Of a DNA stretch of 64,000 nucleotides, positions 21,713 to 40,704 are shown piece by piece. The stretch spans positions 132,608-196,607 of the forward strand of contig JAHHIK010000001.1 of assembly GCA_019358935.1 (NCBI GenBank), in the 5' to 3' direction. This DNA comes from Tolypothrix carrinoi HA7290-LM1 (GTDB lineage Bacteria > Cyanobacteriota > Cyanobacteriia > Cyanobacteriales > Nostocaceae). The position numbers were made by a program, and so were the translations under genes. Under the pieces are notes generated by a model that saw nothing but the letters and a program-made list of their open reading frames with translations, was not told the DNA's origin and ran no database searches. Position 1 is the stretch's first letter, and the number at the start of each line of letters is the position of its first letter.

Positions 21713-22072
21713 TTAAGATACGTTGGAGTTGCTTCTAGCGACTTTGCGTTTGTGAGCTACTTCAGGTTGGGGTGTGCTAGCAAGCGTTGGCTCGTCAGTT
21801 CCCAATAGGTCATGTATCTGGTTTAAAGATGTTGGTGTTTTTGCCGAAATCTCTTCTGGTGATGCACTTACGTACTCAATCAGGTCTTCTACCTTGCAGT
21901 TCAGAGCTTGGCAAAATCTCACGATTCTTTCAATATGGTCTGTTCCAGTCCTGCCACTCTCCCAGTTTTGGATCGTGCTTTCAGTCACTCCGACAAGACG
22001 TGATAGCTCAAGCTGGGTCAGCCCTGCTTTGTCACGCAGAAAGGCGATTCTTGGTTTTGCTTTCTGTTTCAC
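21713..22072 (-). CDS. XRE-family HTH transcriptional regulator, divergent from the tandem array
   Basis: LTQLELSRLVGVTESTIQNWESG; GTG start. Confidence 0.88.
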   Translation of the reverse strand: MKQKAKPRIAFLRDKAGLTQLELSRLVGVTESTIQNWESGRTGTDHIERIVRFCQALNCKVEDLIEYVSASPEEISAKTPTSLNQIHDLLGTDEPTLASTPQPEVAHKRKVARSNSNVS

Positions 22073-22170: not shown

Positions 22171-22206
22171 TTGACACCCCCAATAACTTTGGTTAAAACT
22201 ATTGGG
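22171..22206 (+). promoter_or_regulatory. Putative promoter (TTGACA) overlapped by inverted repeat CCCAATA-N14-TATTGGG
   Basis: TTGACA at 22171-22176, 17-nt spacer, imperfect -10 TAAAAC; inverted repeat at 22179-22206. Confidence 0.45.
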
Positions 22207-22453
22207 TATGAGATTAGCCTCTTTTAGAGTCCGATTATAAAGGACAGATAAAGCGCACGCATTCAACTTGAAAAAAACTTTCAGAAAAATCCGGAATGAT
22301 GCGACTTTGATTTGAATCTCATAACATCAAACGACAGCGTAAAAACCCTGAGAACTCCTCAAATTTTAAGTATGTATACGCAAATTGAGTCACAGGATTT
22401 ATAAGTCAGTTTGAACCAACTACAACATACAAATAATCAGGTCTAGAAATATT

Positions 22454-22831
22454 ATGTTGAAGAATTTCGCTTTTGGTTTACTGGCTGCAACTTTGGCGAT
22501 CGCTCCTGGTGCAGCAGCATTTGCAGGTCAAGGTCAAAGCAACGTGCAAGTTACCACACAAGACGGTGCAGCAATCGATGGTAGCACCAACGCTCAAAGC
22601 TCCACAAGCACCAACGTGCAACAACAAATTCAAAACGCACAGAAAAAAGCTGGTGCTTATCGTCCTGGCAGATACTACAACCCGGCTTGCAGAGGTGGAT
22701 CAACTGCTCAATCTCAAGGTTCTGTACAACGTACAAGCCAAAGCGGTGCTGCAATTGGCGGTTCTGTGAATGCTCAAGATAGCGTTACAACCAGCAATCA
22801 GCGTCAAATTTTAGCTGCCGGCTGCCGCTAA
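22454..22831 (+). CDS. Secreted Q/N/S/G-rich two-repeat protein, array copy 1 (Cys-pair subtype)
   Basis: Sec signal ending AFA; repeats VQxTxQxGAAIxGSxNAQxS. Confidence 0.88.
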   Translation: MLKNFAFGLLAATLAIAPGAAAFAGQGQSNVQVTTQDGAAIDGSTNAQSSTSTNVQQQIQNAQKKAGAYRPGRYYNPACRGGSTAQSQGSVQRTSQSGAAIGGSVNAQDSVTTSNQRQILAAGCR

Positions 22832-22954
22832 TTACTGCATAAGTTCCGATGGCGTTACCTACTTAATAAAAGAATCACGCTAACGATTCCACAAGTCAAA
22901 TAACGCCTTCTTTTTCATCAACAACACATACACAAATATTTAGGTATAAAAACA

Positions 22955-23329
22955 ATGTTGAAGAATCTCGCATTTGGTATCTTAGCCGCAGCAATCGCGA
23001 TCGCTCCTGGTGCAGCATTTGCCGGTCAAGGTCAAAGCAACGTGCAAGTTACCACACAAGACGGTGCAGCAATCGATGGTAGCACCAACGCTCAAAGCTC
23101 CACAAGCACCAACGTGCAACAACAAATTCAAAACGCACAGAAAAAAGCTGGTGCTTATCGTCCTGGCAGATACTACAACCCGGCTTGCAGAGGTGGATCA
23201 ACTGCTCAATCTCAAGGTTCTGTACAACGTACAAGCCAAAGCGGTGCTGCAATTGGCGGTTCTGTGAATGCTCAAGATAGCGTTACAACCAGCAATCAGC
23301 GTCAAATTTTAGCTGCCGGCTGCCGCTAA
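22955..23329 (+). CDS. Secreted two-repeat protein, array copy 2 (Cys-pair subtype)
   Basis: Mature part identical to copy 1. Confidence 0.88.
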   Translation: MLKNLAFGILAAAIAIAPGAAFAGQGQSNVQVTTQDGAAIDGSTNAQSSTSTNVQQQIQNAQKKAGAYRPGRYYNPACRGGSTAQSQGSVQRTSQSGAAIGGSVNAQDSVTTSNQRQILAAGCR

Positions 23330-23452
23330 TTACTGCATAAGTTCCGATGGCGTTACCTACTTAATAAAAGAATCACGCTAACGATTCCACAAGTCAAATA
23401 ACGCCTTCTTTTTCATCAACAACACATACACAAATATTTAGGTATAAAAACA

Positions 23453-23827
23453 ATGTTGAAGAATCTCGCATTTGGTATCTTAGCCGCAGCAATCGCGATC
23501 GCTCCTGGTGCAGCATTTGCCGGTCAAGGTCAAAGCAACGTGCAAGTTACCACACAAGACGGTGCAGCAATCGATGGTAGCACCAACGCTCAAAGCTCCA
23601 CCAGCACCAACGTGCAACAACAAATTCAAAACGCACAGAAAAAAGCTGGTCGTTATCACGGTGGCAGATACTACAACCCGGCTTGCAGAGGTGGATCAAC
23701 TGCTCAATCTCAAGGTTCTGTCCAACGTACAAGCCAAAGCGGTGCTGCAATTGGCGGTTCTGTGAATGCTCAAGATAGCACCACAACCAGCAATCAGCGT
23801 CAAATTTTAGCTGCCGGCTGCCGCTAA
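23453..23827 (+). CDS. Secreted two-repeat protein, array copy 3 (Cys-pair subtype)
   Basis: Same architecture; linker RYHGGRYYNPAC. Confidence 0.88.
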   Translation: MLKNLAFGILAAAIAIAPGAAFAGQGQSNVQVTTQDGAAIDGSTNAQSSTSTNVQQQIQNAQKKAGRYHGGRYYNPACRGGSTAQSQGSVQRTSQSGAAIGGSVNAQDSTTTSNQRQILAAGCR

Positions 23828-23951
23828 TTACTGCATAAGTTCCGATGGCGTTACCTACTTAATAAAAGAATCACCACTAGATTCCACAAGTCAAATAACG
23901 CCTTCTTTTTCATCAACAACACTCACACACAAGTAAATTAGGTTTAAAACA

Positions 23952-24326
23952 ATGTTGAAGAATTTTGCTTTTGGTATCTTAGCTGCTGCGATCGCTATTG
24001 CTCCGGGTGCAGCATTTGCCGGTCAATCTCAAAGCAACGTGCAAATTACTGAGCAAAACGGTACAGCAATCAATGGTAGCACCAACGCTCAAAGCTCCAC
24101 CAGCACCAACGTGCAACAACAAATTCAAAACGCACAGAAAAAAGCTGGTCGTTATCACGGTGGCAGATACTACAACCCGGCTTGCAGAGGTGGATCAAGT
24201 GCTCAAGCTCAAGGTTCTACTCAAATTACACGCCAAAGCGGTGCTGCGATTGACGGTTCTGTGAATGCTCAAGATAGCGTTACAACTAGCAATCAGCGTC
24301 AAGTTTTAGCTCGTCGCGGCTGCTAA
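23952..24326 (+). CDS. Secreted two-repeat protein, array copy 4 (Cys-pair subtype, more diverged)
   Basis: Same architecture; ends RRGC. Confidence 0.88.
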   Translation: MLKNFAFGILAAAIAIAPGAAFAGQSQSNVQITEQNGTAINGSTNAQSSTSTNVQQQIQNAQKKAGRYHGGRYYNPACRGGSSAQAQGSTQITRQSGAAIDGSVNAQDSVTTSNQRQVLARRGC

Positions 24327-24428
24327 TTATTCTATCAAGTTATCAGGCGTTGCTTACCATTATTTGATGAACATACAACGCCATTTCTCTCATCAACCAT
24401 ACACACACAATTAATCAAGTCTAAAAAT

Positions 24429-24803
24429 ATGTTGAAGAATCTTGCATTTGGTATCTTAGCCGCAGCAATCGCGATCGCTCCTGGTGCAGCATTTGCCGGT
24501 CAAGGTCAAAGCAACGTGCAAGTTACCACACAAGACGGTGCAGCAATCGATGGTAGCACCAACGCTCAAAGCTCCACCAGCACCAACGTGCAACAACAAA
24601 TTCAAAACGCACAGAAAAAAGCTGGTCGTTATCACGGTGGCAGATACTACAACCCCGCTTGCAGAGGTGGATCAAGTGCTCAATCTCAAGGTTCTGTACA
24701 ACGTACAAGCCAAAGCGGTGCTGCAATTGGCGGTTCTGTGAATGCTCAAGATAGCGTTACAACCAGCAATCAGCGTCAAATTTTAGCTCGTCGCGGCTGC
24801 TAA
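24429..24803 (+). CDS. Secreted two-repeat protein, array copy 5 (Cys-pair subtype)
   Basis: Same architecture; mosaic of copies 2-4. Confidence 0.88.
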   Translation: MLKNLAFGILAAAIAIAPGAAFAGQGQSNVQVTTQDGAAIDGSTNAQSSTSTNVQQQIQNAQKKAGRYHGGRYYNPACRGGSSAQSQGSVQRTSQSGAAIGGSVNAQDSVTTSNQRQILARRGC

Positions 24804-24928
24804 TTACTGCATAAGTTCCGATGGCGTTACCTAATTAATAAAAGAATCACCACAAGATTCCACTGACTCAAATAACGCCTTCTTTTTCATCAACAACACT
24901 CACACACAAGTAAATTAGGTTTAAAACA

Positions 24929-25294
24929 ATGTTGAAGAATTTTGCTTTTGGTATTTTGGCTGCTGCGATCGCGATCGCTCCTGGTGCAGCATTTGCAGGT
25001 CAAGGTCAAAGCAACGTCCAAGTTACCACACAAGACGGTGCTGCAATCAATGGTAGCACCAACGCTCAAAGCTCCGTCAGCACCAACCGCCAACAACAAA
25101 TTCAAAACGCACAGAAAAAAGCTGGTGGATACCGTGGCAGCTACTACAAGCCCCGCTACCCCAAAGCTAACACAAACCAATCTCAAGGCTCTGTCCAACG
25201 TACAAGCCAAAGTGGTGCTGCGATTGATGGTTCTGTGAATGCTCAAGATAGCGTAACCCGCAACAACCAAACCCAAAATGTTCGCGGTCGCTAA
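24929..25294 (+). CDS. Secreted two-repeat protein, array copy 6 (Cys-free subtype)
   Basis: Linker GYRGSYYKPRYPK; no cysteine. Confidence 0.88.
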   Translation: MLKNFAFGILAAAIAIAPGAAFAGQGQSNVQVTTQDGAAINGSTNAQSSVSTNRQQQIQNAQKKAGGYRGSYYKPRYPKANTNQSQGSVQRTSQSGAAIDGSVNAQDSVTRNNQTQNVRGR

Positions 25295-25396
25295 TTATTA
25301 ATTAAGTTCAATGGCGTTGCATACATTACTTAACAACAGACAACGCCCGCATCGCTCATCAACAACACTCACACACAAATATTAAGGTTTAAAACA

Positions 25397-25762
25397 ATGT
25401 TGAAGAATTTTGCTTTCGGTATTTTGGCTGCTGCTTTAGCTATTGCTCCTGGTGCAGCATTTGCAGGTCAAGGTCAAAGCAACGTGCAAGTTACCACACA
25501 AGACGGTGCTGCAATCAATGGTAGCACCAACGCTCAAAGCTCCACAAGCTCCAACCGCCAACAACAAATTCAAAACGCACAGAAAAAAGCTGGTGGTTAC
25601 CGTGGCAGCTACTACAAGCCCCGCTACCCCAAAGCTAACACAAACCAATCTCAAGGCTCTGTCCAACGTACAAGCCAAAGCGGTGCTGCGATTGACGGTT
25701 CTGTGAATGCTCAAGATAGCGTAACCCGCAACAACCAAACCCAAAATGTTCGCGGTCGCTAA
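25397..25762 (+). CDS. Secreted two-repeat protein, array copy 7 (Cys-free subtype)
   Basis: Near-identical to copy 6. Confidence 0.88.
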   Translation: MLKNFAFGILAAALAIAPGAAFAGQGQSNVQVTTQDGAAINGSTNAQSSTSSNRQQQIQNAQKKAGGYRGSYYKPRYPKANTNQSQGSVQRTSQSGAAIDGSVNAQDSVTRNNQTQNVRGR

Positions 25763-25865
25763 TTATTAATTAAGTTCAAAGGCGTTGCTAATTAAAGTTT
25801 AACTCAAACAACGCCCTTTCCAAACAAAAACAACACTCACACACAAGTAAATTAGGTTTAAAACA

Positions 25866-26231
25866 ATGTTGAAGAATTTTGCTTTCGGTATTTTGGCTGC
25901 TGCGATCGCGATCGCTCCTGGTGCTGCATTTGCAGGTCAATATCAAGGCAACGTGCAGTCTACCACACAAGACGGTGCTGCAATCAATGGTAGCACCAAC
26001 GCTCAAAGCTCCGTCAGCACCAACCGCCAACAACAAATTCAAAACGCACAGAAAAAAGCTGGTGGTTACCGTGGCAGCTACTACAAGCCCCGCTACCCCA
26101 AAGCTAACACAAACCAATCTCAAAACTCTAGACAAGGTACACACCAAAGCGGTGCTGCGATTGACGGTTCTGTGAATGCTCAAGATAGCACAACCCGCAA
26201 CAACCAAAGCCAAAGTGTTCGCGGTCGCTAA
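25866..26231 (+). CDS. Secreted two-repeat protein, array copy 8 (Cys-free subtype)
   Basis: Same architecture, slightly diverged repeats. Confidence 0.88.
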   Translation: MLKNFAFGILAAAIAIAPGAAFAGQYQGNVQSTTQDGAAINGSTNAQSSVSTNRQQQIQNAQKKAGGYRGSYYKPRYPKANTNQSQNSRQGTHQSGAAIDGSVNAQDSTTRNNQSQSVRGR

Positions 26232-26345
26232 TTATTAATTGAGTTATTAGGCGTTGCATTCATTGAAGGAATCAGCCAAATTATTCTGCTTCTAGAGCAA
26301 CGCCTGCTCGAAATCACTAAGAAATTTCAAATCGGATTCAAAAAT

Positions 26346-26696
26346 ATGTTGAAGAAAACTTACGCTTTTAGTCTTTTAGCCGCAGCAATGATTATAGCAC
26401 CATCTGCTGCCTTCGCAGGCGATTCAGGTACTCGCCAAGAGCTTAATCAAAGTGCTACTTCGATTAACAACAGTCGAGTCGATCAAAAAGCTAGCCAAAC
26501 TAGCTACCAGTACCGCACCAATGGAGCAGGTTCTCGCTACGGCAACAAATACTGTGGAGGAAACCAGCAATCACAACGCTCAAATCAGCGTATTGACCAA
26601 AATGGTGTAGCGATCAATGATAGCGTTGTCAGCCAACGTGCCGACCAAACAAACTTGCAACGTCAAGCTGGTGCCGCTCAACGGTACTGCCGCTAA
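26346..26696 (+). CDS. Diverged ninth paralog of the array proteins (Cys pair present)
   Basis: AFA signal; repeats QELNQSATSINNSRVDQ and QRIDQNGVAINDSVVSQ; KYCGG linker and RYCR end. Confidence 0.82.
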   Translation: MLKKTYAFSLLAAAMIIAPSAAFAGDSGTRQELNQSATSINNSRVDQKASQTSYQYRTNGAGSRYGNKYCGGNQQSQRSNQRIDQNGVAINDSVVSQRADQTNLQRQAGAAQRYCR

Positions 26697-26978
26697 AGCA
26701 CTTGTGTTATCAGCTTAAGCTATCAAGTTTCAAACTTAAAATGCTGTGGCTGCTGACTAAACCCTTGATTAATTCTACTGCCACGAGAAAGGCGTTGTTA
26801 AATAATTCTTGCAGCGCCGGGATCCGATAAGCAAATTGCTTTTAAGTCGAATTAGTCTGGAGTGCGATCGTGTGGTGTGGTGTGGTGCTGACAGCTTTTT
26901 AACAGGGGTATTACCGATTTGCTAGCTTGCGAAGCAGAAAAAAAAATCGGTTTTTTCTATTAGGAGAGTGATTAAGTT

Positions 26979-27491
26979 ATGTTTCCCAAACAAACAGTTT
27001 CATTACTAGCAGTCTTGTCTGCGCTAATTGCATTACCAAGTGGAATTGCCAGAGCCGGTGACATTTTCGTTCAAACTGATAACGTTCAAGTCTCGGTTGG
27101 CAATGACAGCGGTATCCGGATTAACAACACTCCCACACACAGGTTCAAGTCTCCCCGTTGGCTTTCTGCACCGATCGCATCACCTCGCAGCATTGTCACA
27201 GCAGGTAACACGATAGTTGAAACTGACGACGTTATGGTCGATGTTGATGACTACGATGACGACGACGATATCAGGGTTAACACAACTCCCAGAAGAACTA
27301 TTATTCGCACTCCAGCGCGGATTTATCGACCAAATAATGTTCGGACTTACGGAATTTGGAAAAACCCCCGCTCAACTCCGTCTATGAAATGTAATGGCAG
27401 AAATATAACTCAGAGAAGCATTCAAAGCCATAGTTCCGGTAGAGCAGTTAACCGCAGTTATAGTTCGACTACAACAACAACTTGTCAATAG
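26979..27491 (+). CDS. Secreted hypothetical protein with duplicated N-terminal beta module and C-terminal Cys pair
   Basis: Signal peptide ending ARA, AGGAG RBS; paralog at 32791-33156. Confidence 0.8.
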   Translation: MFPKQTVSLLAVLSALIALPSGIARAGDIFVQTDNVQVSVGNDSGIRINNTPTHRFKSPRWLSAPIASPRSIVTAGNTIVETDDVMVDVDDYDDDDDIRVNTTPRRTIIRTPARIYRPNNVRTYGIWKNPRSTPSMKCNGRNITQRSIQSHSSGRAVNRSYSSTTTTTCQ

Positions 27492-27525
27492 TTCACGTTT
27501 TGTTTATTTCCATTAGGATACAACC

Positions 27526-27912
27526 ATGAATTCCAAATTACTTTCTCTCGGTATTTTCTCAGTTGTAAGTGTATCTCCTTTCTTGATGCCTTCGTTTACT
27601 CCTAAAGCTGCGGCTGGGTGTGTTGCAGTTGATGTGGCAGCGCAAGTAGCGGTTGACGGTTCCAGAACACGTTCGCAATCGAATAATGTTAGTCAACGCT
27701 TTGACCCGAATTGCAGTGGTGGCAGTGTCACCAGCGTCGGCAACCAAGTTTGTGTTTCTACCAAGTGCGAACAAAGACGGACAAGCAATCAGTCTGTTAG
27801 TGGAAACGGTGGATACAACACTGGTGGTCGAAATATTAACATTAAAGTAAATCCTCGAGTAAAAGTATACAACCCAGCTGCTGACCCCAACTCTCCGCTT
27901 TATAGGAGATAA
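27526..27912 (+). CDS. Secreted Cys-containing S/N/Q/V-rich hypothetical protein
   Basis: Signal peptide ending AAA; four Cys; beta-rich composition. Confidence 0.8.
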   Translation: MNSKLLSLGIFSVVSVSPFLMPSFTPKAAAGCVAVDVAAQVAVDGSRTRSQSNNVSQRFDPNCSGGSVTSVGNQVCVSTKCEQRRTSNQSVSGNGGYNTGGRNINIKVNPRVKVYNPAADPNSPLYRR

Positions 27913-28073
27913 ATAAACCCAATATCTATAAATTGGGTGTAACGATTTAATCGTTTTGAATTCCCCTTCGGGGGAATTTCGTCATAATTACTTTATTAAC
28001 ATAACTTTGGGGGGGTTTCTCTGGGAACTGTAGTTGGGGCGGCTCATACTATATAGTCAGGGGAGTTAATCTA

Positions 28074-28622
28074 ATGATGAAAAAAATTCTCATGGTTTTG
28101 GCAGGCAGCGTCGTTTGTGTCATGGCGACGACGTTTCTAGTTCAAAACTTAACTCAAAGCAACCAAAATCAAAATACTTTTCTGAGGTCAGACAACACTA
28201 GTATTAACTCAGACAGTACAAGTGTTAACTCAGCTAACAATAATGACGATGATGATATGCAAGATGGAACTTTTATGAACCAACAAAACGATCAATCATC
28301 TCAGTATCAACGAAGCACTCTCAATGTGGATGCAGCCAGTCTTAGTCAACCTCATATTCTCAGCATTAATAGCTCTGCAACTCAATTGAGAGGTGAGATT
28401 CTTGTTGATGGTAAAGTGGTGAAAAAACTGAACAAGAACAGTTCTGAGGTTAATCTCTCACCTTATCTATCAATGGGACAACACAATGTTGAAATTACTG
28501 CGCGTTATTCTCCGCCAACCTCTGGGGTGAATGTTCAAATAAACGGTCCCGGCACAAATGTCGCTCAACAAAATAGCGGTGATGGTGCTTTAAATTACAA
28601 AATTGATGTTAACGTGCAATAG
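28074..28622 (+). CDS. Exported or membrane-anchored hypothetical protein with C-terminal beta-sandwich-like domain
   Basis: N-terminal hydrophobic helix, N/D/Q-rich linker, alternating beta pattern. Confidence 0.75.
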   Translation: MMKKILMVLAGSVVCVMATTFLVQNLTQSNQNQNTFLRSDNTSINSDSTSVNSANNNDDDDMQDGTFMNQQNDQSSQYQRSTLNVDAASLSQPHILSINSSATQLRGEILVDGKVVKKLNKNSSEVNLSPYLSMGQHNVEITARYSPPTSGVNVQINGPGTNVAQQNSGDGALNYKIDVNVQ

Positions 28623-28835: not shown

Positions 28836-29450
28836 TTAATTCATCAGTGCAGCAAGCAAAGTTCCGATCGCGACTTCCAATTCTTCAGTCACTCGATAAA
28901 GATTAATTGCTTGTTCAATACTTTGTTTTTGTCTATTTAATATACCAAATTGCCAAACATTACCTGTAGTTACTGCTCCCAATATTTCAGCTTGAGTAGA
29001 ATCAGTCCATTTATCGAGAGCTATCATCTCAGTCGCTAATTGTATAAATCCCCTATTTATATCTGCTTGCTTGGCTTCAATCACAATTAAATTTGTTGTT
29101 GTTCGCAGATAATAATTCAAGTTACCTTGAAGTTTATTATCAACTTTAATATTGTATTCTATTCGTAATTTAGCGTGATAATAATGGATTAAATCAGTAA
29201 CAATGGGCGCAATTAAAATTTCACGACGAGTAGCTTCGTTCTCTAAATCTACAAAAGGTAATACTTCTTCAATCCGTTGTTTTAGATCGGCAAGTCTGTC
29301 TAATGAACCAGAATATTGCGGTAAATCAATAAATTTACGCTCGAATGAATAACCAAATTCAGCTACTAAATCATCAACTGCAAACCCTAATTCAAAGTAA
29401 TTGCTAAAAGTATATGAGCGATTTGGGTCTAACAATGGTGGACGGCTCAT
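28836..29450 (-). CDS. Cyanobacterial PD-(D/E)XK-like hypothetical protein
   Basis: EATRREILIAP, VIEAK and GAVTTGNVWQFG blocks; ATG at 29450. Confidence 0.75.
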   Translation of the reverse strand: MSRPPLLDPNRSYTFSNYFELGFAVDDLVAEFGYSFERKFIDLPQYSGSLDRLADLKQRIEEVLPFVDLENEATRREILIAPIVTDLIHYYHAKLRIEYNIKVDNKLQGNLNYYLRTTTNLIVIEAKQADINRGFIQLATEMIALDKWTDSTQAEILGAVTTGNVWQFGILNRQKQSIEQAINLYRVTEELEVAIGTLLAALMN

Positions 29451-29565
29451 TGAATTCCTCCAATCAAGCAAATTAGGCAGTAATTGATTCAGGATGAGGA
29501 CTTAAGTCCTCACTACGAGCTTATCAACGTTATATGACCGGACATTGCATAAATCAAGCCTACGA

Positions 29566-30015
29566 TTAACTAGTTCTAGTTGCTTGTAATTGATTTTCTA
29601 GATTTGCCCGCAACCGCAAGTCTGTGACTGACCAAATCCAAAACTTGTTAGAAGCATCGGCAAAATCATCATGTTTATGGGTAACGATCGCATCTAATTC
29701 TTGATAACTAGCACAAACTAATTCTACAGCAGATTCAAAATCTCTAAGTGGTGAGGAGCGTGCTTGTTGTAAAATTGTCTGATCGACACAGCAAATCTGA
29801 ATTTTCTCTTGTAACCAATCAACTACTATTTCTGCTATTTTAGTACTTTGAAAACGACTTGCATAATCGTAAATTTTCTGCCAACCAACATCTGTTACAT
29901 ACATTTGTATTGACGGGTGTACTCTATCCAATAGTTCCCTGACATTTCCGACAAATTCGGTGCGATTAATCAAAGCTTCTAAAATTAAATCAGCATCAAC
30001 TAAAATCCTGATCAC
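29566..30015 (-). CDS. PIN-domain protein
   Basis: ILVDADLIL, DFESAV and DAIVT motifs. Confidence 0.8.
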   Translation of the reverse strand: MIRILVDADLILEALINRTEFVGNVRELLDRVHPSIQMYVTDVGWQKIYDYASRFQSTKIAEIVVDWLQEKIQICCVDQTILQQARSSPLRDFESAVELVCASYQELDAIVTHKHDDFADASNKFWIWSVTDLRLRANLENQLQATRTS

Positions 30016-32790: not shown

Positions 32791-33156
32791 CTAACAAGAT
32801 GTTGTCGTTGTGGAACTGTAAGTGCGGTTAACCGAAGTGCCAGATCTGTTGGTTTGAGTGCTTTGCTGGGTTATTTTTCTGCCATTACAAATATTTGGCG
32901 TCGATCGAGAATTTTTCCAAACGCTGTAACGCTGGTTACGATTTGGTAGAACACGTATCCTTGAGGTGGGTACGCGACGGCTAGGAACGATAATTGTTTG
33001 TTTGGGAGTCGAGTTAATTATTGTAGTGCCGTCTTCACTAACTCTGACTCTCATGTTGCCGGTCTGAACGTCAATGTCCTCTGCTGTGGCAATACCTGCT
33101 GGTAATACCATCAAAGCAGAGACTGCTAATAATGAAAGTGTTTGTTTGATAATCAT
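32791..33156 (-). CDS. Secreted hypothetical protein, paralog of 26979-27491
   Basis: Shared LPxGIA, DIxVQT, WKNxRSTP, CNGRxITQ and VNRxYSSTTTTxC blocks. Confidence 0.82.
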   Translation of the reverse strand: MIIKQTLSLLAVSALMVLPAGIATAEDIDVQTGNMRVRVSEDGTTIINSTPKQTIIVPSRRVPTSRIRVLPNRNQRYSVWKNSRSTPNICNGRKITQQSTQTNRSGTSVNRTYSSTTTTSC

Positions 33157-37221: not shown

Positions 37222-40200
37222 CTACCGTTGAGCGCAAGTAGGAGAAGCAAACCCAGAAGCATTAGATGCCGAGGAAATCAGCGTTACTTCCCCCGTCTGA
37301 TTATTAAATACCCAACCTGTAGCCGGGACAATTTCCACAGCTTTTGGTTTTGAGGATGATAAGGCGATCGCTGTTTTTGAAGGTTGCTGCGTTACAGTTG
37401 CGGTGAGGCGAGTATCTGACCATACTACATCACTACTGAGGAAATCGTCAGGGCTTAGGGGCAAACCACCGCGTCCGGTGACAGTAAATTCGCTTCCGTT
37501 TTTTCCGGCGATCGCACCACAACTAGTGTCAACAAGTCGGGAAACATCGGTTAGACCTGTGGGTAGTTCCACCAATCCTTGGGTGGGGTCGATGTCGGGT
37601 GTATTGATAATCACCTCACCGCTGAGTCCAAATTGAGAACTAGCAGTAATATCGCTTTGTGGTGTGGGTTGCGATCGCGCTTCAATGCCAAATAAGCCTT
37701 GTGAAGTGATATTAACCCTGCCACCCTTTCCGGTGAAAGCATTTGCCGTAATGTCGCTATCTTCGTTATCGATAGCAACGATAAAGGGTGTATTGATAGT
37801 GATATTACCGCCATCGCCACCTGATTGAGTCAACCCCGCAGTTGTGGAAATACTGCTGTTACGACGTAACAGTAAAAAATCTGCGGCTGTTAAGTTAATA
37901 TTTCCACCATTGCCAGAATTAGTTGATGCGGCAATAATACCTCGGTTATCTAGTCGGACAGAACGAGTATTAATATTGATATCTCCAGCGTTTCCCTGTC
38001 CGGAACTGCTAGAAGTTAATGCTGCACGGTTGGTAATAGACAGATTTCGGGCAGTAATATTAATGTTGCCACCCTCACCTCTGCCTACAAATCCTTCTTC
38101 TGCTGTGACTTGAGTAGATATTCCGCTACTAAAACCACCAGAACCTACTCCATCAAGGGAAACTGTACCACCAGCATTAACTGAGACATTTCCTGCATTC
38201 CCTTGTGCAAAAGTATCAGCACTGATCTGACCGCCACTTTTGATAATAATATCGCCAGATGTATTAATTTGAAAATTCCCAGCATCGCCTTTGCCCAAGG
38301 TAGCAGTAAATAATCGAGCATTGTCAGATAAGGAGAAGCTACGTCCTTGAATCTCAATATTTCCACCACTACCTATTCCTCCTAATCCTACAGTACTAAT
38401 TAGATTCCCTTTCTCGGAAATCGAGATATTCCCCCCTGCGCGAATCACTATCTTACCAGCATTACCTTGTCCAGAGGTAAAAGCTGCCACTGAAGCATTT
38501 TTGACGGTAAAGTCATCTATCGTATTAATCGAGATATTTCCAGCATTACCTCTGCCAGAAGTGAATGTAAATAAATCAGCACCGTCAGACAAAGAGAAAC
38601 TACGCGCTTGGATCTCAATATCACCACCATTACCCACCCCTGAATCTAATATACCGCTAGTAACTGCACTACTTGTGCGATCGCCACGTCCAGAAATCAA
38701 AACAGCGCCACCAGAGCGAATTGTTACCTTACCAGCATTACCTTCCCCAGAACTAGCAGCACTTACAAAAGCACCTCTAGTGATAGAAAAATCATTCGCT
38801 GTATTGATTAAAATATTGCCAGCTAAACCCTTCCCCCCAAGGTTGGTAGCAGTAACTTGAGACTCATCGGTTAAAGAAAACAAACCAGTTTGAATATTGA
38901 TATTTCCACCATTACCCACCGCTCCAGCATTTACAGTGCTAAAAATTGAAGCATTATTTAGGGAAACAGCATCTCTAGCTTGCACAAAGATGTTACCTGC
39001 CTTACCGTCTCCAGCAGTACTTGCATTTATAAAAGTCCCCTCGCCTAAAGACAGCGAACCTGATTTGATATTAATGTTACCGCCATTGCCCTGTGCGCCA
39101 TTCTCTAGGTCGCTAAAAATGGCAGTACCTAAGTTATTGTTCGGCACAGCAAGCGTTACTGCACCACTCACATCAATATTAATATTACCGCCATTTCCCC
39201 GACCCCCAGGCAGGTTATTCTGAATATCAGTTCCACGCAACCCAGCTTGCAATTGAGCGCCATCATTTAAAGTGAGTGAAGGTGCGGTGATATTAATGTT
39301 GCCACCATTGCCTACTCCCCCAGATTCTATATTGCTGAAGATAGTAGTATTACTACCAGCAAGAGAAACAAAATCCCTGGCTTGTATCGAGACATTACCA
39401 GCATCTCCTTGTGCGTAGGTACTGGCATTTAATTGAGAGCCATCTGCTAAGGAAACTGAGCCAGCAGTAATATTGATATTACCTCCCCTACCTACAGCTG
39501 GCGATCGCACACTGCTTAAAATGTTACTGCTTCCGGTTTGACCCACACCTGAAAAAGTTAGCGCATCACCAACATTAAGATTAACGTTACCACCATCCCC
39601 CTGTCCAAAGTTATTAGTATTTAAGGCACTACCATTAACCAGGGCAAGCGAGCCTGTATTAATATTGATGTTGCCACCTTTACCCACAGATGTTGGTTGG
39701 GGAACATTGGCAATAAAGCTATCATCAGTTAAAGTTGTTGCCCCTGTAGCATTAATCTCAACATCTCCGGCTTTGCTTGCGGGTGTACCATTACCCGTGT
39801 CTATCCCCGCTCTGACTTTACTTGCTCCCGCTAAACTCAAGTTTTGAGCATTGATGGCAATACTACCAGCATCACTACCACGGACATTCACCTCAGCCTC
39901 ATTAGTTAAAGATACATTTGCTCGTTGCACATCGGGAACACCCAAGCTAAGTATATTCCCTGTGAAATTTAACCCAATATTCCCAGGTGCAGCTAATCCG
40001 GCTAACTCGATGCGTCCGTTATAAGCTCTCAGGCTACCACCATCAATATTGACATCGCCACCGACCAATAGTAAACTCTTACCATCTGGCACTCTCAAGC
40101 CTGTAACTTCAACGCCTGCTAAATTCACGCCTGCGGGTGCAGTTGAGCTACTTGTAATTGCTGCGGGTGAAGGTTGAAGAAACAGCAATGCCGAAGGATT

Positions 40201-40704
40201 GATTGTCAATAATGGTGTGGGTGCATTCGGAGTAGTTGCGCTGAAAATCCCAGCAGTTCCAAATTGAATGGCGTTAGCTGTAGAACCAACAAAAGACCCG
40301 CCGACATTTAAACTGGCATTATTGCCAAAAATAATTCCGTTGGGATTGAGTAAAAATACGTTAGCTGTCCCATTTGCGCGAATTAATCCATCAATGTTGG
40401 AGATTGAATTACCCGTTACCCTGCTGATAATGTTACTAATGTCAAGAGCATTGTTGAAAAAAGCTGTGCCACCAGTGGGAACGGAGAATTCTTTAAAACT
40501 GTGGAATAAGTTGTTTCCGATTTGGCTTCCGCCAGTGATATTTAAGATATTACCCTGTGGTGTGATGATGGAGTTATTCGGTAAAGTGGCATCCGGGCTA
40601 ATTTGCGCTGATGCACTATTTGCCCAAAAATACTCGCAAAGCGCGTAGGCGTAGCCCGTCGTAGACATCGCTATCCCTAACAACCAGCCCCAATGATTGC
40701 TCAT
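37222..40704 (-). CDS. Filamentous-haemagglutinin-family (TpsA-like) beta-helical exoprotein
   Basis: NLFHSF and NPNGIIFG secretion domain; GxGGNINI repeats; GRGGLP and PATGW C-terminal motifs. Confidence 0.9.
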   Translation of the reverse strand: MSNHWGWLLGIAMSTTGYAYALCEYFWANSASAQISPDATLPNNSIITPQGNILNITGGSQIGNNLFHSFKEFSVPTGGTAFFNNALDISNIISRVTGNSISNIDGLIRANGTANVFLLNPNGIIFGNNASLNVGGSFVGSTANAIQFGTAGIFSATTPNAPTPLLTINPSALLFLQPSPAAITSSSTAPAGVNLAGVEVTGLRVPDGKSLLLVGGDVNIDGGSLRAYNGRIELAGLAAPGNIGLNFTGNILSLGVPDVQRANVSLTNEAEVNVRGSDAGSIAINAQNLSLAGASKVRAGIDTGNGTPASKAGDVEINATGATTLTDDSFIANVPQPTSVGKGGNININTGSLALVNGSALNTNNFGQGDGGNVNLNVGDALTFSGVGQTGSSNILSSVRSPAVGRGGNINITAGSVSLADGSQLNASTYAQGDAGNVSIQARDFVSLAGSNTTIFSNIESGGVGNGGNINITAPSLTLNDGAQLQAGLRGTDIQNNLPGGRGNGGNINIDVSGAVTLAVPNNNLGTAIFSDLENGAQGNGGNINIKSGSLSLGEGTFINASTAGDGKAGNIFVQARDAVSLNNASIFSTVNAGAVGNGGNINIQTGLFSLTDESQVTATNLGGKGLAGNILINTANDFSITRGAFVSAASSGEGNAGKVTIRSGGAVLISGRGDRTSSAVTSGILDSGVGNGGDIEIQARSFSLSDGADLFTFTSGRGNAGNISINTIDDFTVKNASVAAFTSGQGNAGKIVIRAGGNISISEKGNLISTVGLGGIGSGGNIEIQGRSFSLSDNARLFTATLGKGDAGNFQINTSGDIIIKSGGQISADTFAQGNAGNVSVNAGGTVSLDGVGSGGFSSGISTQVTAEEGFVGRGEGGNINITARNLSITNRAALTSSSSGQGNAGDININTRSVRLDNRGIIAASTNSGNGGNINLTAADFLLLRRNSSISTTAGLTQSGGDGGNITINTPFIVAIDNEDSDITANAFTGKGGRVNITSQGLFGIEARSQPTPQSDITASSQFGLSGEVIINTPDIDPTQGLVELPTGLTDVSRLVDTSCGAIAGKNGSEFTVTGRGGLPLSPDDFLSSDVVWSDTRLTATVTQQPSKTAIALSSSKPKAVEIVPATGWVFNNQTGEVTLISSASNASGFASPTCAQR
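40643..40671 (-). repeat. Second HIP1-inserted 21-nt repeat, in frame within the FHA signal region
   Basis: GCG-[21 nt]-ATCGC on the + strand; protein reads GIAMSTTGYAYALC instead of GIAIALC. Confidence 0.85.

Follow-up and report, generated by a model that had tools for sequence, protein, structure and literature searches.

Polysaccharide is the usual explanation given for the sheaths, mats and soil crusts of cyanobacteria. Streptomyces chaplins are small Sec-secreted fibre proteins encoded by multiple paralogues, most but not all of which carry a Cys pair, and HET-s and HELLF, signalling prions of the cytoplasm whose triangular core is hydrophobic, stack two rungs per chain from two pseudo-repeats joined by a flexible loop. 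In curli, as described in the accessible part of the source, CsgA stacks in register and head to tail with Gln/Asn ladders, and the curlin core holds inward hydrophobic residues (PMC10192328). The accessible text of the curli survey gives a minimal motif of X6QXGX2NX10 and names the phyla Proteobacteria, Bacteroidetes, Firmicutes and Thermodesulfobacteria (PMC3521004). According to the parts of the Fap reports available, Q/N-rich beta-solenoid layers, flexible linkers, major and accessory amyloid subunits and a chaperone come from one operon (bioRxiv 10.1101/2025.03.15.642095; 10.64898/2026.10.01.755530). In Synechococcus elongatus, four small secreted proteins from one operon, EbfG1-4, are needed for biofilm and amyloid-prone, with double-Gly leaders, PteB/EbfE export and a short A-Phi-N-I-Pi hotspot, as the accessible text has it (PMC9981879); this is the sole cyanobacterial amyloid-prone matrix system that we found in print, from one model strain.

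The window analysed here is a 64,000-nucleotide stretch of Tolypothrix carrinoi HA7290-LM1 DNA, for which an earlier note had proposed a nine-gene tandem array of secreted proteins. Indeed, all nine ORFs were recovered on the + strand at 22454-26696, with a start-to-start spacing of 468-501 bp where about 470-500 bp had been claimed, and copy 9 is the diverged one (44% identity to copy 1, compared to 73-97% for copies 2-8). The operon-like unit runs past the array to 28622, so that the whole cassette spans 22454-28622 and, as the note had expected, includes accessory genes, named here accA, accB and accC:

21713..22072, - strand: XRE-type HTH gene, divergent neighbour of the array
22171..22199, + strand: candidate sigma-70-type promoter (TTGACA, 17 nt, TAAAAC)
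22290..22297, + strand: TCCGGAAT motif
22454..22831, + strand: major subunit copy 1, 125 aa, Cys-pair type
22851..22907, + strand: first of eight spacer stems (GGCGTT...AACGCC)
22955..23329, + strand: major subunit copy 2, 124 aa, Cys-pair type, inside the 578-bp exact repeat
23453..23827, + strand: major subunit copy 3, 124 aa, reference numbering (signal 1-23, rung 1 27-57, linker 58-86, rung 2 87-117, Cys78 and Cys123)
23952..24326, + strand: major subunit copy 4, 124 aa, Cys-pair type
24429..24803, + strand: major subunit copy 5, 124 aa, Cys-pair type
24929..25294, + strand: major subunit copy 6, 121 aa, Cys-free, Tyr/Lys/Arg/Pro linker, net +8
25397..25762, + strand: major subunit copy 7, 121 aa, Cys-free type
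25866..26231, + strand: major subunit copy 8, 121 aa, Cys-free type
26346..26696, + strand: minor subunit (ninth, last array gene), 116 aa, own cross-genus lineage
26979..27491, + strand: accA, 170 aa, with signal peptide, beta-rich stretch at the N-terminus and rung-length segment Cys138-Cys169 at the C-terminus
27526..27912, + strand: accB, 128 aa, signal peptide, invariant Cys32/Cys63 and Gln40/51/74/83
28074..28622, + strand: accC, 182 aa, with a signal for export or anchoring, a low-complexity stalk and, at the C-terminus, an Ig/FnIII-like beta-sandwich (79-181)
32791..33156, - strand: second accA paralogue lying apart from the cassette, 121 aa, 40% identity

A pN/pS of 0.22 (copies 2-8, codons 1-62) and matches in 9 of 10 same-genus genomes show that the array genes are real rather than chance ORFs; no extra copy was found elsewhere in the genome of this strain. 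The count of nine is uncertain by about one owing to a 578-bp exact repeat (22526-23103 and 23024-23601), copy 2 being either a recent duplicate or an assembly doubt; arrays of 4-7 copies were also seen in complete or near-complete genomes (loci L096, L094 and L100). In all nine products a Lys-bearing N-region is accompanied by a hydrophobic stretch and by an AFA/G site, and the mature chains (92-101 aa, net charge +5 to +8) consist of Q, S, N, T, G and A to 63-72%, bearing out the Sec signal and composition read earlier. Two cysteines are present in copies 1-5 and 9 and none in copies 6-8. Last-position copies fall into one clade (46 of 56, SH-aLRT 99), and the minor subunit is a candidate nucleator or terminator.

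In a comparison of 20 cassette loci with 10 empty-site loci, the -35 box of the candidate promoter, which a consensus promoter scan did not report, is retained with the cassette and decayed where the site is empty, and the TCCGGAAT motif, a candidate regulator site or second promoter element, is conserved upstream at cassette loci only. The spacer stem, a candidate mRNA-stabilising hairpin, occurs in all eight intra-array spacers, followed each time by an unpaired CA-rich leader, and in 80 of 159 spacers elsewhere, compared to 0.7% in shuffles. The suggestion that the array has its own regulator was weakened: the XRE gene is present in 164 of 301 family genomes and accB in 116, and 14 of 15 XRE-centred loci lack the cassette, with XRE directly beside the PIN gene in 8 of them. 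XRE is part of the genomic backbone and persists where the cassette is missing, so that it need not be dedicated to it.

Conservation was analysed over 215 distinct subunits (Nostocales rows). The two aligned repeats with a Tyr/Arg/Gly-rich linker reported in the note were found again, as 31-residue repeats at an offset of 60 residues with six Gln columns in register (Q27/87, Q31/91, Q35/95, Q47/107, Q55/115 and Q57/117 in copy-3 numbering), Gln occupying the first five at 80-99%. Uncharged and charged positions alternate strictly, with charged residues at 0.0% and 1.3% of inward positions and 15% and 24% of outward ones, and Pro is absent from every core. The linker is 8-34 residues long (median 21) with a median net charge of +4 and none negative. 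An AxA signal-peptidase site is present in 210 of the 215, marking the leaders as Sec/SPase I type. In 220 rows, which are kin and not independent, both cysteines occur in 163, neither in 56 and one in 1. Seven distant subunits carry a QxGxGN arc within 32-residue rungs, two or three per chain, while only 4 of the 215 Nostocales rows and none of the nine window proteins contain QxGxxN.

AlphaFold2 modelling of the monomer gave four strands (29-40, 44-59, 89-100 and 104-119) matching the repeats, with low confidence (mean pLDDT 51.9). The modelling check for stacked beta-arches that had been proposed was made with four copies and gave a score of 0.47, compared to 0.06 for the best of three controls, with at least 82% of contacts in common between runs and partner pLDDT of at least 68. 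Of the proteins with solved structures, 20 of 30 known as pairs of one chain attain the score mark, as does 1 of 23 known as single chains, a calibration that applies only roughly to a model built on its own alignment with four copies. In the modelled interface, residues 84-123 lie on 24-63 of the next chain, placing repeat 2 on repeat 1, and the best contact pairs (118/58, 110/50, 108/48 and 96/36) sit at offset 60, as in an in-register head-to-tail stack. Structure models of this type readily stack Q/N repeats.

Among the accessory proteins, accA, without a Pfam match, is a candidate minor fibre or cap component, and accB, the best marker of the cassette, a candidate nucleator, cap or anchor without homology to the subunit by profile comparison. 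accC is a candidate chaperone, anchor or adhesin; CsgC and CsgH are absent among the structure matches listed for it, and it also occurs alone (loci L108, L129-L132, L145 and L147), so that its link to the fibre is not strict.

The synteny search across cyanobacteria that the note had called for revealed the order subunit x n, accA, accB, accC in 55 of 64 loci of heterocystous genera, with 1-9 subunit copies in 36 XRE-bounded arrays and diverged cassette forms in nine other families of the class. With accB as marker, no cassette was detected in 185 of the 301 genomes of the family. Single-subunit cassettes are kept in small-genome lineages, cluster members being named Dolichospermum and Anabaena, which argues against a role confined to thick sheaths; this pattern of absence and retention fits no simple sheath trait. 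No description of the cassette was found in the published literature, and no Pfam family matches the subunit, as the note had anticipated, with curlin repeat PF07012 absent from 92 members and 20 distant subunits.

Combining sequence and structural models, we consider it reasonably probable that the subunit is a two-rung polar beta-solenoid polymerising into a cross-beta fibre, and the cassette a self-contained builder of a tough, amyloid-like fibre beyond the cell membrane, for which reinforcement of the cell-surface matrix (sheath or biofilm) is the favoured role. The secreted, high-dosage, self-stacking structural subunit of the note gains computational support from the register in 215 subunits and the four-copy model. 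One transcript would start upstream of copy 1, the hairpins before each cistron possibly favouring subunit genes over accA-C. All products carry export signals, those of the subunits being of Sec/SPase I type. The mature subunit is predicted to form two long beta-arches, in each of which a 3-4-residue arc links two strands of about 13-15 residues, with Gln, Asn, Ser, Thr, Ala and Gly forming polar ladders on the inside and the charged or variable residues turned outward; chains would stack with the second rung of one on the first rung of its neighbour, and the resulting cross-beta fibre would be unbranched. The Cys pair may close rung 2 at its open end, and the linker, basic and made largely of Gly, Arg and Tyr, may loop out every second rung and bind surfaces or polyanionic polysaccharide. 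Starting, capping or anchoring the fibre may fall to accA, accB and the minor subunit, accC may chaperone or tether it, and gene amplification would supply dosage and linker variants. The ordered cassette and the last-copy lineage resemble the operon logic of curli and Fap and speak for the fibre reading by analogy. The paired cysteines, the QxGxGN arc of distant members and the copy number of 1-9 with its conserved spacer stem point the same way. The poor monomer model, a core far more polar than that of curlin, the lack of an outer-membrane channel in the cassette, the distribution across family genomes and the occurrence of accC alone speak against it, and the complex-model result may reflect likeness to solved beta-solenoid amyloids and not true assembly.

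The same beta-arch fold could instead serve in the periplasm or wall, as a short oligomer or scaffold capped by accA/accB for wall remodelling or stress protection. With Sec signals only, no outer-membrane exporter in the cassette and no CsgG in the genome, an extracellular location lacks an explanation, and a polysaccharide deacetylase and MltA flank the array; accD, a possible membrane gene, is also missing from this genome. However, deacetylase, PIN and MltA are backbone genes that stay where the cassette is missing, cassettes elsewhere stand in unrelated contexts, a secretin is present, and open-ended stacking with 5-9-fold amplification better fits a bulk polymer, making this alternative unlikely. 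We regard as distinctly improbable a non-amyloid pilus-like appendage or surface layer held by strand exchange or disulphide cross-links, with accC as Ig-like tip adhesin or chaperone. The accC beta-sandwich is confidently predicted (pLDDT about 90 over 81-160), with weak Foldseek rows to fimbrial subunits and chaperones (E 6e-3 or worse), and paired cysteines occur in subunit, accA and accB; but the accC matches are generic Ig/FnIII (best Z 6.9, rmsd 4.2 over 87 residues, none reaching 8), the subunit has neither hydrophobic core nor Ig fold, a quarter of subunits have no Cys, and neither usher nor prepilin site was found.

Little probability is given to a soluble secreted binder (of ice, mineral, water or polysaccharide) or desiccation protectant whose flat Ser/Thr face acts without polymerising and is amplified for dosage. 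Although Thr, Asn, Ser and Val abound on the outward faces and the nearest carriers bear names of terrestrial and rock-surface genera, outward positions are the variable ones, which implies no conserved binding face, two uncapped rungs alone are unlikely to be stable (pLDDT 52 alone versus 68-72 stacked, from different programs), and hot-spring, marine and planktonic genera are among the carriers. Small genes in tandem whose conserved flanks enclose a variable, cationic segment with Cys would also suit peptide precursors (RiPP, microcin- or EbfG-like, or antimicrobial linker peptides), but no modifying enzyme, protease or C39 transporter is among the conserved cassette genes, the leaders are Sec-type and not double-Gly, and conservation follows alternating core positions rather than cleavage motifs, so that this reading is barely credible.

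If the favoured cross-beta fibre is true, Sec-exported beta-solenoid amyloids would gain a third architecture, one with a polar core. The four-gene cassette occurs in culturable strains that bear the names Chlorogloeopsis, Fischerella and Leptolyngbya boryana and would allow genetics and biochemistry to ask directly whether sheaths, mats and crusts have a scaffold of protein fibres, and a two-rung scaffold with a naturally variable display loop would suit engineered living materials. A wider proposal, which we put forward as speculative and rather doubtful, is a class-wide, hitherto unrecognised functional amyloid of cyanobacteria apart from curli and Fap, with wide, almost entirely polar Gln/Asn/Ser rungs, disulphide-closed ends and cationic loops that can be exchanged, its export needing neither CsgG nor FapF; at 4-9 copies in sheathed surface-dwelling heterocystous genera it would provide the sheath or crust matrix with a protein skeleton resistant to detergent, and QxGxGN members may share deep curlin ancestry.

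Chaplins are hydrophobic, whereas the cassette subunits are polar and basic, and no chaplin family was among the Pfam matches. The only HET-s/HELLF structural row (Z 2.2, rmsd 6.3 over 48 residues) is not evidence. Membership of chaperone-usher or Ig-fold pili was rejected, the subunit being predicted as beta-arches with a polar core and the cassette having no usher gene. Compared to EbfG as the accessible text describes it, the subunits have Sec leaders, whole-chain repeats and no cassette-borne C39 transporter, and the A-Phi-N-I-Pi hotspot was not found in the nine window sequences. With Fap, so far as its available description goes, they share long Q/N-rich repeats separated by variable flexible linkers, but the FapC core is three-layered and S-shaped while two simple arches are predicted here, dosage comes from tandem genes, and no FapF-like beta-barrel or FapD-like C39 protease is among the conserved genes (subunit, accA, accB and accC). 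The failure of the note to recognise curli transport genes was borne out genome-wide for the secretion channel: CsgG (PF03783) gave 0 matches in the 99.65% complete genome (control positive in 4 of 14), and the curlin repeat was not found there (E. coli control positive). The rungs are 31-32 residues compared to about 23 in curlin, two or sometimes three being split by a long basic linker, with an almost wholly polar core and an optional disulphide. Nevertheless, the likeness to curli, as far as the accessible sources describe it, extends to Sec-exported imperfect strand-arc-strand repeats with an inward Gln/Asn ladder, multi-copy subunit genes with a major and a paralogous minor subunit, and, in distant cyanobacterial members, a QxGxGN arc matching the minimal curli motif (PMC3521004). 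The best reading is that the cassette, having no curlin repeat, CsgG or double-Gly leader, is no member of these systems but would work like curli and Fap.

All nine tandem reading frames claimed in the earlier note were present in the window as described. The unit is larger than the array noted first and extends to accA-accB-accC, accessory genes without a family name; subunit and accessory genes together are referred to as the cassette. The region contains the following features.

21713-22072, minus strand: XRE gene
22454-26696, plus strand: nine subunit genes (copies 1-9)
22454-28622: cassette, subunit genes followed by accA, accB and accC
28836-29471, minus strand: 211-aa ORF between accC and PIN, with no Pfam match and not seen in 15 loci compared
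29566-30015: PIN gene
32791-33156, minus strand: second accA paralogue between mltA and pxcA, found likewise in six close relatives (among L065-L072)
37222-40704, minus strand: 1160-aa filamentous-haemagglutinin-like exoprotein with a TPS secretion domain (PF05860), with no link to the cassette seen

Compared to copy 1, the other major copies (to copy 8) share 73-97% identity and copy 9 shares 44%. The mature chains are basic and consist of Q, S, N, T, G and A to 63-72%, and the subunit genes are under purifying selection (pN/pS 0.22). The array count is uncertain by about one because an exact repeat of 578 bp spans copies 1-3; shadow ORFs in other frames across the array were discarded as by-products of the repeat. 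No further subunit copy was found elsewhere in the genome (7.96 Mb, 99.65% complete), and a search for longer or fused subunit forms gave none, which is weak evidence.

Sequence comparison of 215 distinct subunits revealed that the two repeats of each chain, termed rungs, superpose with an offset of 60. Positions of one parity hardly vary and carry almost no charge, with 0.0% and 1.3% charged residues and a composition led by Gln (36-40%) and followed by Ser, Asn, Ala, Gly and Thr. The opposite parity is variable and 15-24% charged; no Pro occurs in the core. Beta-arches whose polar ladders face inward would be expected to show such an alternation. The arc has three residues in the window subunits and is of the A-x-[DNG]-[GDNY]-S type in 146 of the 215 sequences, while 28 carry a four-residue arc and seven distant proteins a QxGxGN arc. 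The linker between the rungs (8-34 residues) is rich in Gly, Arg, Ser and Tyr with a median net charge of +4. Among 220 rows, which are kin and so not independent, 163 contain both a linker Cys and a C-terminal Cys, 56 neither and one an unpaired Cys; as the two residues flank rung 2, an intrachain disulfide is likely. Cys-bounded segments of rung length also occur in accA (Cys138-Cys169) and accB (Cys32-Cys63). No profile homology between accB and the subunits was detected in hhalign, so that their likeness is by eye only. Subunits of two or three rungs were observed at L176, L177, L179, L181 and L144, loci of other cyanobacteria, one type having a CxxxxC motif in the first linker; the first four have 32-residue rungs, a curli-type QxGxGN arc and Pro/Tyr-rich linkers.

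Structural modelling in AlphaFold2 (92-row alignment) placed strands at residues 29-40, 44-59, 89-100 and 104-119, with a mean pLDDT of 51.9. The multimer check for stacked beta-arches proposed in the earlier note was run with four copies of residues 24-124, and rung 2 was predicted to rest on rung 1 of the next chain, with the best pairs at offset 60. The score was 0.47, compared to 0.06 for the best control, with shared contacts of at least 82% and partner pLDDT of at least 68. Among proteins of solved structure, 20 of 30 homo-pairs but just 1 of 23 single chains pass the score mark, counts that are only rough for a four-copy job. The model supports an open-ended head-to-tail stacking of subunits, and its pass may be partly owed to likeness with solved amyloids. 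The C-terminus of accC was confidently modelled as a beta-sandwich; its structural matches are of a generic Ig/FnIII kind only, the best having Z 6.9 and rmsd 4.2 with 87 residues aligned.

We consider a self-stacking cross-beta fibre to be the probable product of the cassette. A pilus-like polymer of non-amyloid nature appears quite unlikely and a soluble binder very unlikely, and it is hardly credible that the subunits are peptide precursors. That the subunits stay in a periplasmic or wall-bound form is unlikely. One clear secretin is encoded in the genome. In other lineages accC may be followed directly by a fifth gene, accD, seen in 14 of the 64 loci L065-L128 and at L135:2366-2866 and L028:6467-7018; it encodes a signal peptide, a Q/N stretch and a C-terminal coiled coil; its invariant stretch is amphipathic and hairpin-like with alternating hydrophobic residues, a candidate outer-membrane beta-hairpin. 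AccD, which has no Pfam family and was not found in the window's genome, is a candidate anchor or export element. A PF13557 search was uninformative.

Searches of Pfam, NCBIfam and PDB sequences gave no match above cut-off for the subunits or the acc genes, and matches in the ESM Atlas were unnamed cyanobacterial clusters only. With the low-confidence subunit model as query, Foldseek returned no rows and a structural search two rows only (Z 2.1-2.2), nothing usable. Some members are annotated as 'filamentous hemagglutinin' or 'Curlin-associated protein', names that were rejected for want of domain support. No description of the cassette was found in the literature, although the genes could occur in supplements, in transcriptome/proteome tables or in papers under subscription; searching by accession retrieved no paper on these proteins, five matches sharing just a locus-tag prefix, and amyloid or curli go unmentioned in the accessible part of PMC10581220. 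We rate the family and cassette as undescribed so far, within secreted beta-solenoid amyloid systems.

The subunit profile retrieved 281 proteins among 8000 scored candidates, all cyanobacterial where named, and 58 cluster representatives. Subunit matches, mostly in tandem arrays, were present in 17 of 41 related genomes, including 9 of 10 of the same genus; strains of the Tolypothrix/Hassallia group are the nearest named carriers. A search with accC as bait retrieved 64 named loci, which belong to Tolypothrix, Hassallia, Scytonema, Brasilonema, Stigonema, Fischerella, Chlorogloeopsis, Rivularia, Calothrix and kin. Of these, 55 keep the order subunit(s)-accA-accB-accC; the remaining nine comprise seven cut off by a contig end, one without accA and one orphan accC. 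The 36 arrays bounded on both sides hold 1-9 copies, mostly 4-5, the nine of the window tying with the highest count. Across the phylum the subunit profile matched 10 of 401 genomes only, two of them weakly in long frames; because it misses distant members, accB and accC were taken as markers. At the family level, 116 of 301 genomes contain accB and 110 contain accC. At the class level, accB was detected in 30 of 401 genomes, which represent 10 families; a subunit-like gene adjoins accB in 17 of 18 such loci inspected, with weak to moderate E-values. Diverged versions have a single subunit gene, three rungs or a rearranged order, and cluster members are named Nostoc, Dolichospermum, Anabaena, Leptolyngbya, Synechocystis, Altericista, Trichothermofontia and Pleurocapsa. 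The distribution is patchy and shows no clean match to sheath type. According to older reports, sheaths isolated from genera of this kind contain protein that resists detergent.

Several variants were observed. Homologues of accC stand without subunit, accA or accB at L108, L129-L132, L145 and L147. A rearranged cassette at another site (L158-L161) consists of a Cys-free two-rung subunit, accA, accB and then a subunit-like gene that has one rung and an Arg/Asn-rich tail; accC is not adjacent. At L101:8500-9069 and L102:8947-9570, accB and accC are separated by an additional gene for a secreted low-complexity protein, which has a signal peptide like that of the subunits and a C-terminal Cys pair. 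One genome carries two identical compact cassettes ~110 kb apart (L191 and L192), which suggests recent mobility, and a third, different one (L178).

In a subunit tree (220 sequences, 57 loci, 130 columns, quick method, midpoint root; sequences containing X or not within 95-145 aa excluded), one clade (SH-aLRT 99) unites 46 of the 56 genes in last position, window copy 9 among them. Upstream copies group mostly by lineage. The other ten last genes cluster with their own Fischerella-type or Chlorogloeopsis paralogues. The pattern fits an amplified major and a conserved minor subunit, like CsgA/CsgB and FapC/FapB, and the minor subunit is a candidate nucleator. In each of the eight array spacers a GGCGTT/AACGCC stem precedes an unpaired CA-rich leader. 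Elsewhere, 80 of 159 spacers, from 32 of 51 loci, contain a similar stem pair, compared to 0.7% of shuffled sequences; spacers of the Fischerella and Rivularia types have stems of other sequence in a similar place. The homologous Chlorogloeopsis locus, L096, is present in 14 RNA runs from five studies. In four runs compared, contig depth over its array greatly exceeded that of the flanks in two and was close to background in the other two. This only hints at conditional expression and did not enter the ranking of readings, as the contigs cannot give levels, rank genes, show transcript or exclude DNA and their sums are inflated by repeats. Between the deacetylase and XRE genes of L096 lies a multi-copy repeat element (L096:5940-6190), which shows very high contig depth and many loose ends in RNA runs.

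The deacetylase, XRE, PIN, MltA and PxcA genes are genomic backbone outside the cassette. The XRE gene occurs in 164 of 301 family genomes, and among 15 XRE-centred loci from genomes where no accC-linked cassette was seen at that site, 14 lack the cassette and eight have XRE joined directly to PIN. The dedicated regulator postulated earlier is not supported, as XRE is kept at these empty sites; nor does the comparison support a functional link to deacetylase or MltA. XRE and PIN are adjacent and co-oriented in genomes without the cassette, which suggests a pair split by it. In a promoter alignment covering 20 of the 35 loci with the cassette and 10 of the 13 empty ones, XRE-proximal DNA was conserved even at empty sites, and a TTGAC -35 box and a TCCG-AAT motif only at cassette-bearing ones; XRE may act on the divergent cassette promoter. 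A consensus promoter/terminator scan performed at chance level, and a palindrome operator guess at ~22179-22207 was dropped, being present in the window alone.

The cassette works like curli and Fap, sharing Sec export, a Gln/Asn-laddered beta-solenoid, major and minor subunits and accessory proteins, and is not a member of either. The repeat length differs from that of curli and the subunits lack PF07012; the subunits have two rungs, compared to three layers in Fap. In agreement with the earlier note, which recognised no csg or fap transport genes, no CsgG was found and the cassette is without FapF or FapD. It is also distinct from EbfG, to which double-Gly leaders and PteB export belong, as described in the available text of PMC9981879. 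The stacking predicted by the four-copy model is the same as that of CsgA, for which the accessible part of PMC10192328 reports a head-to-tail mode.
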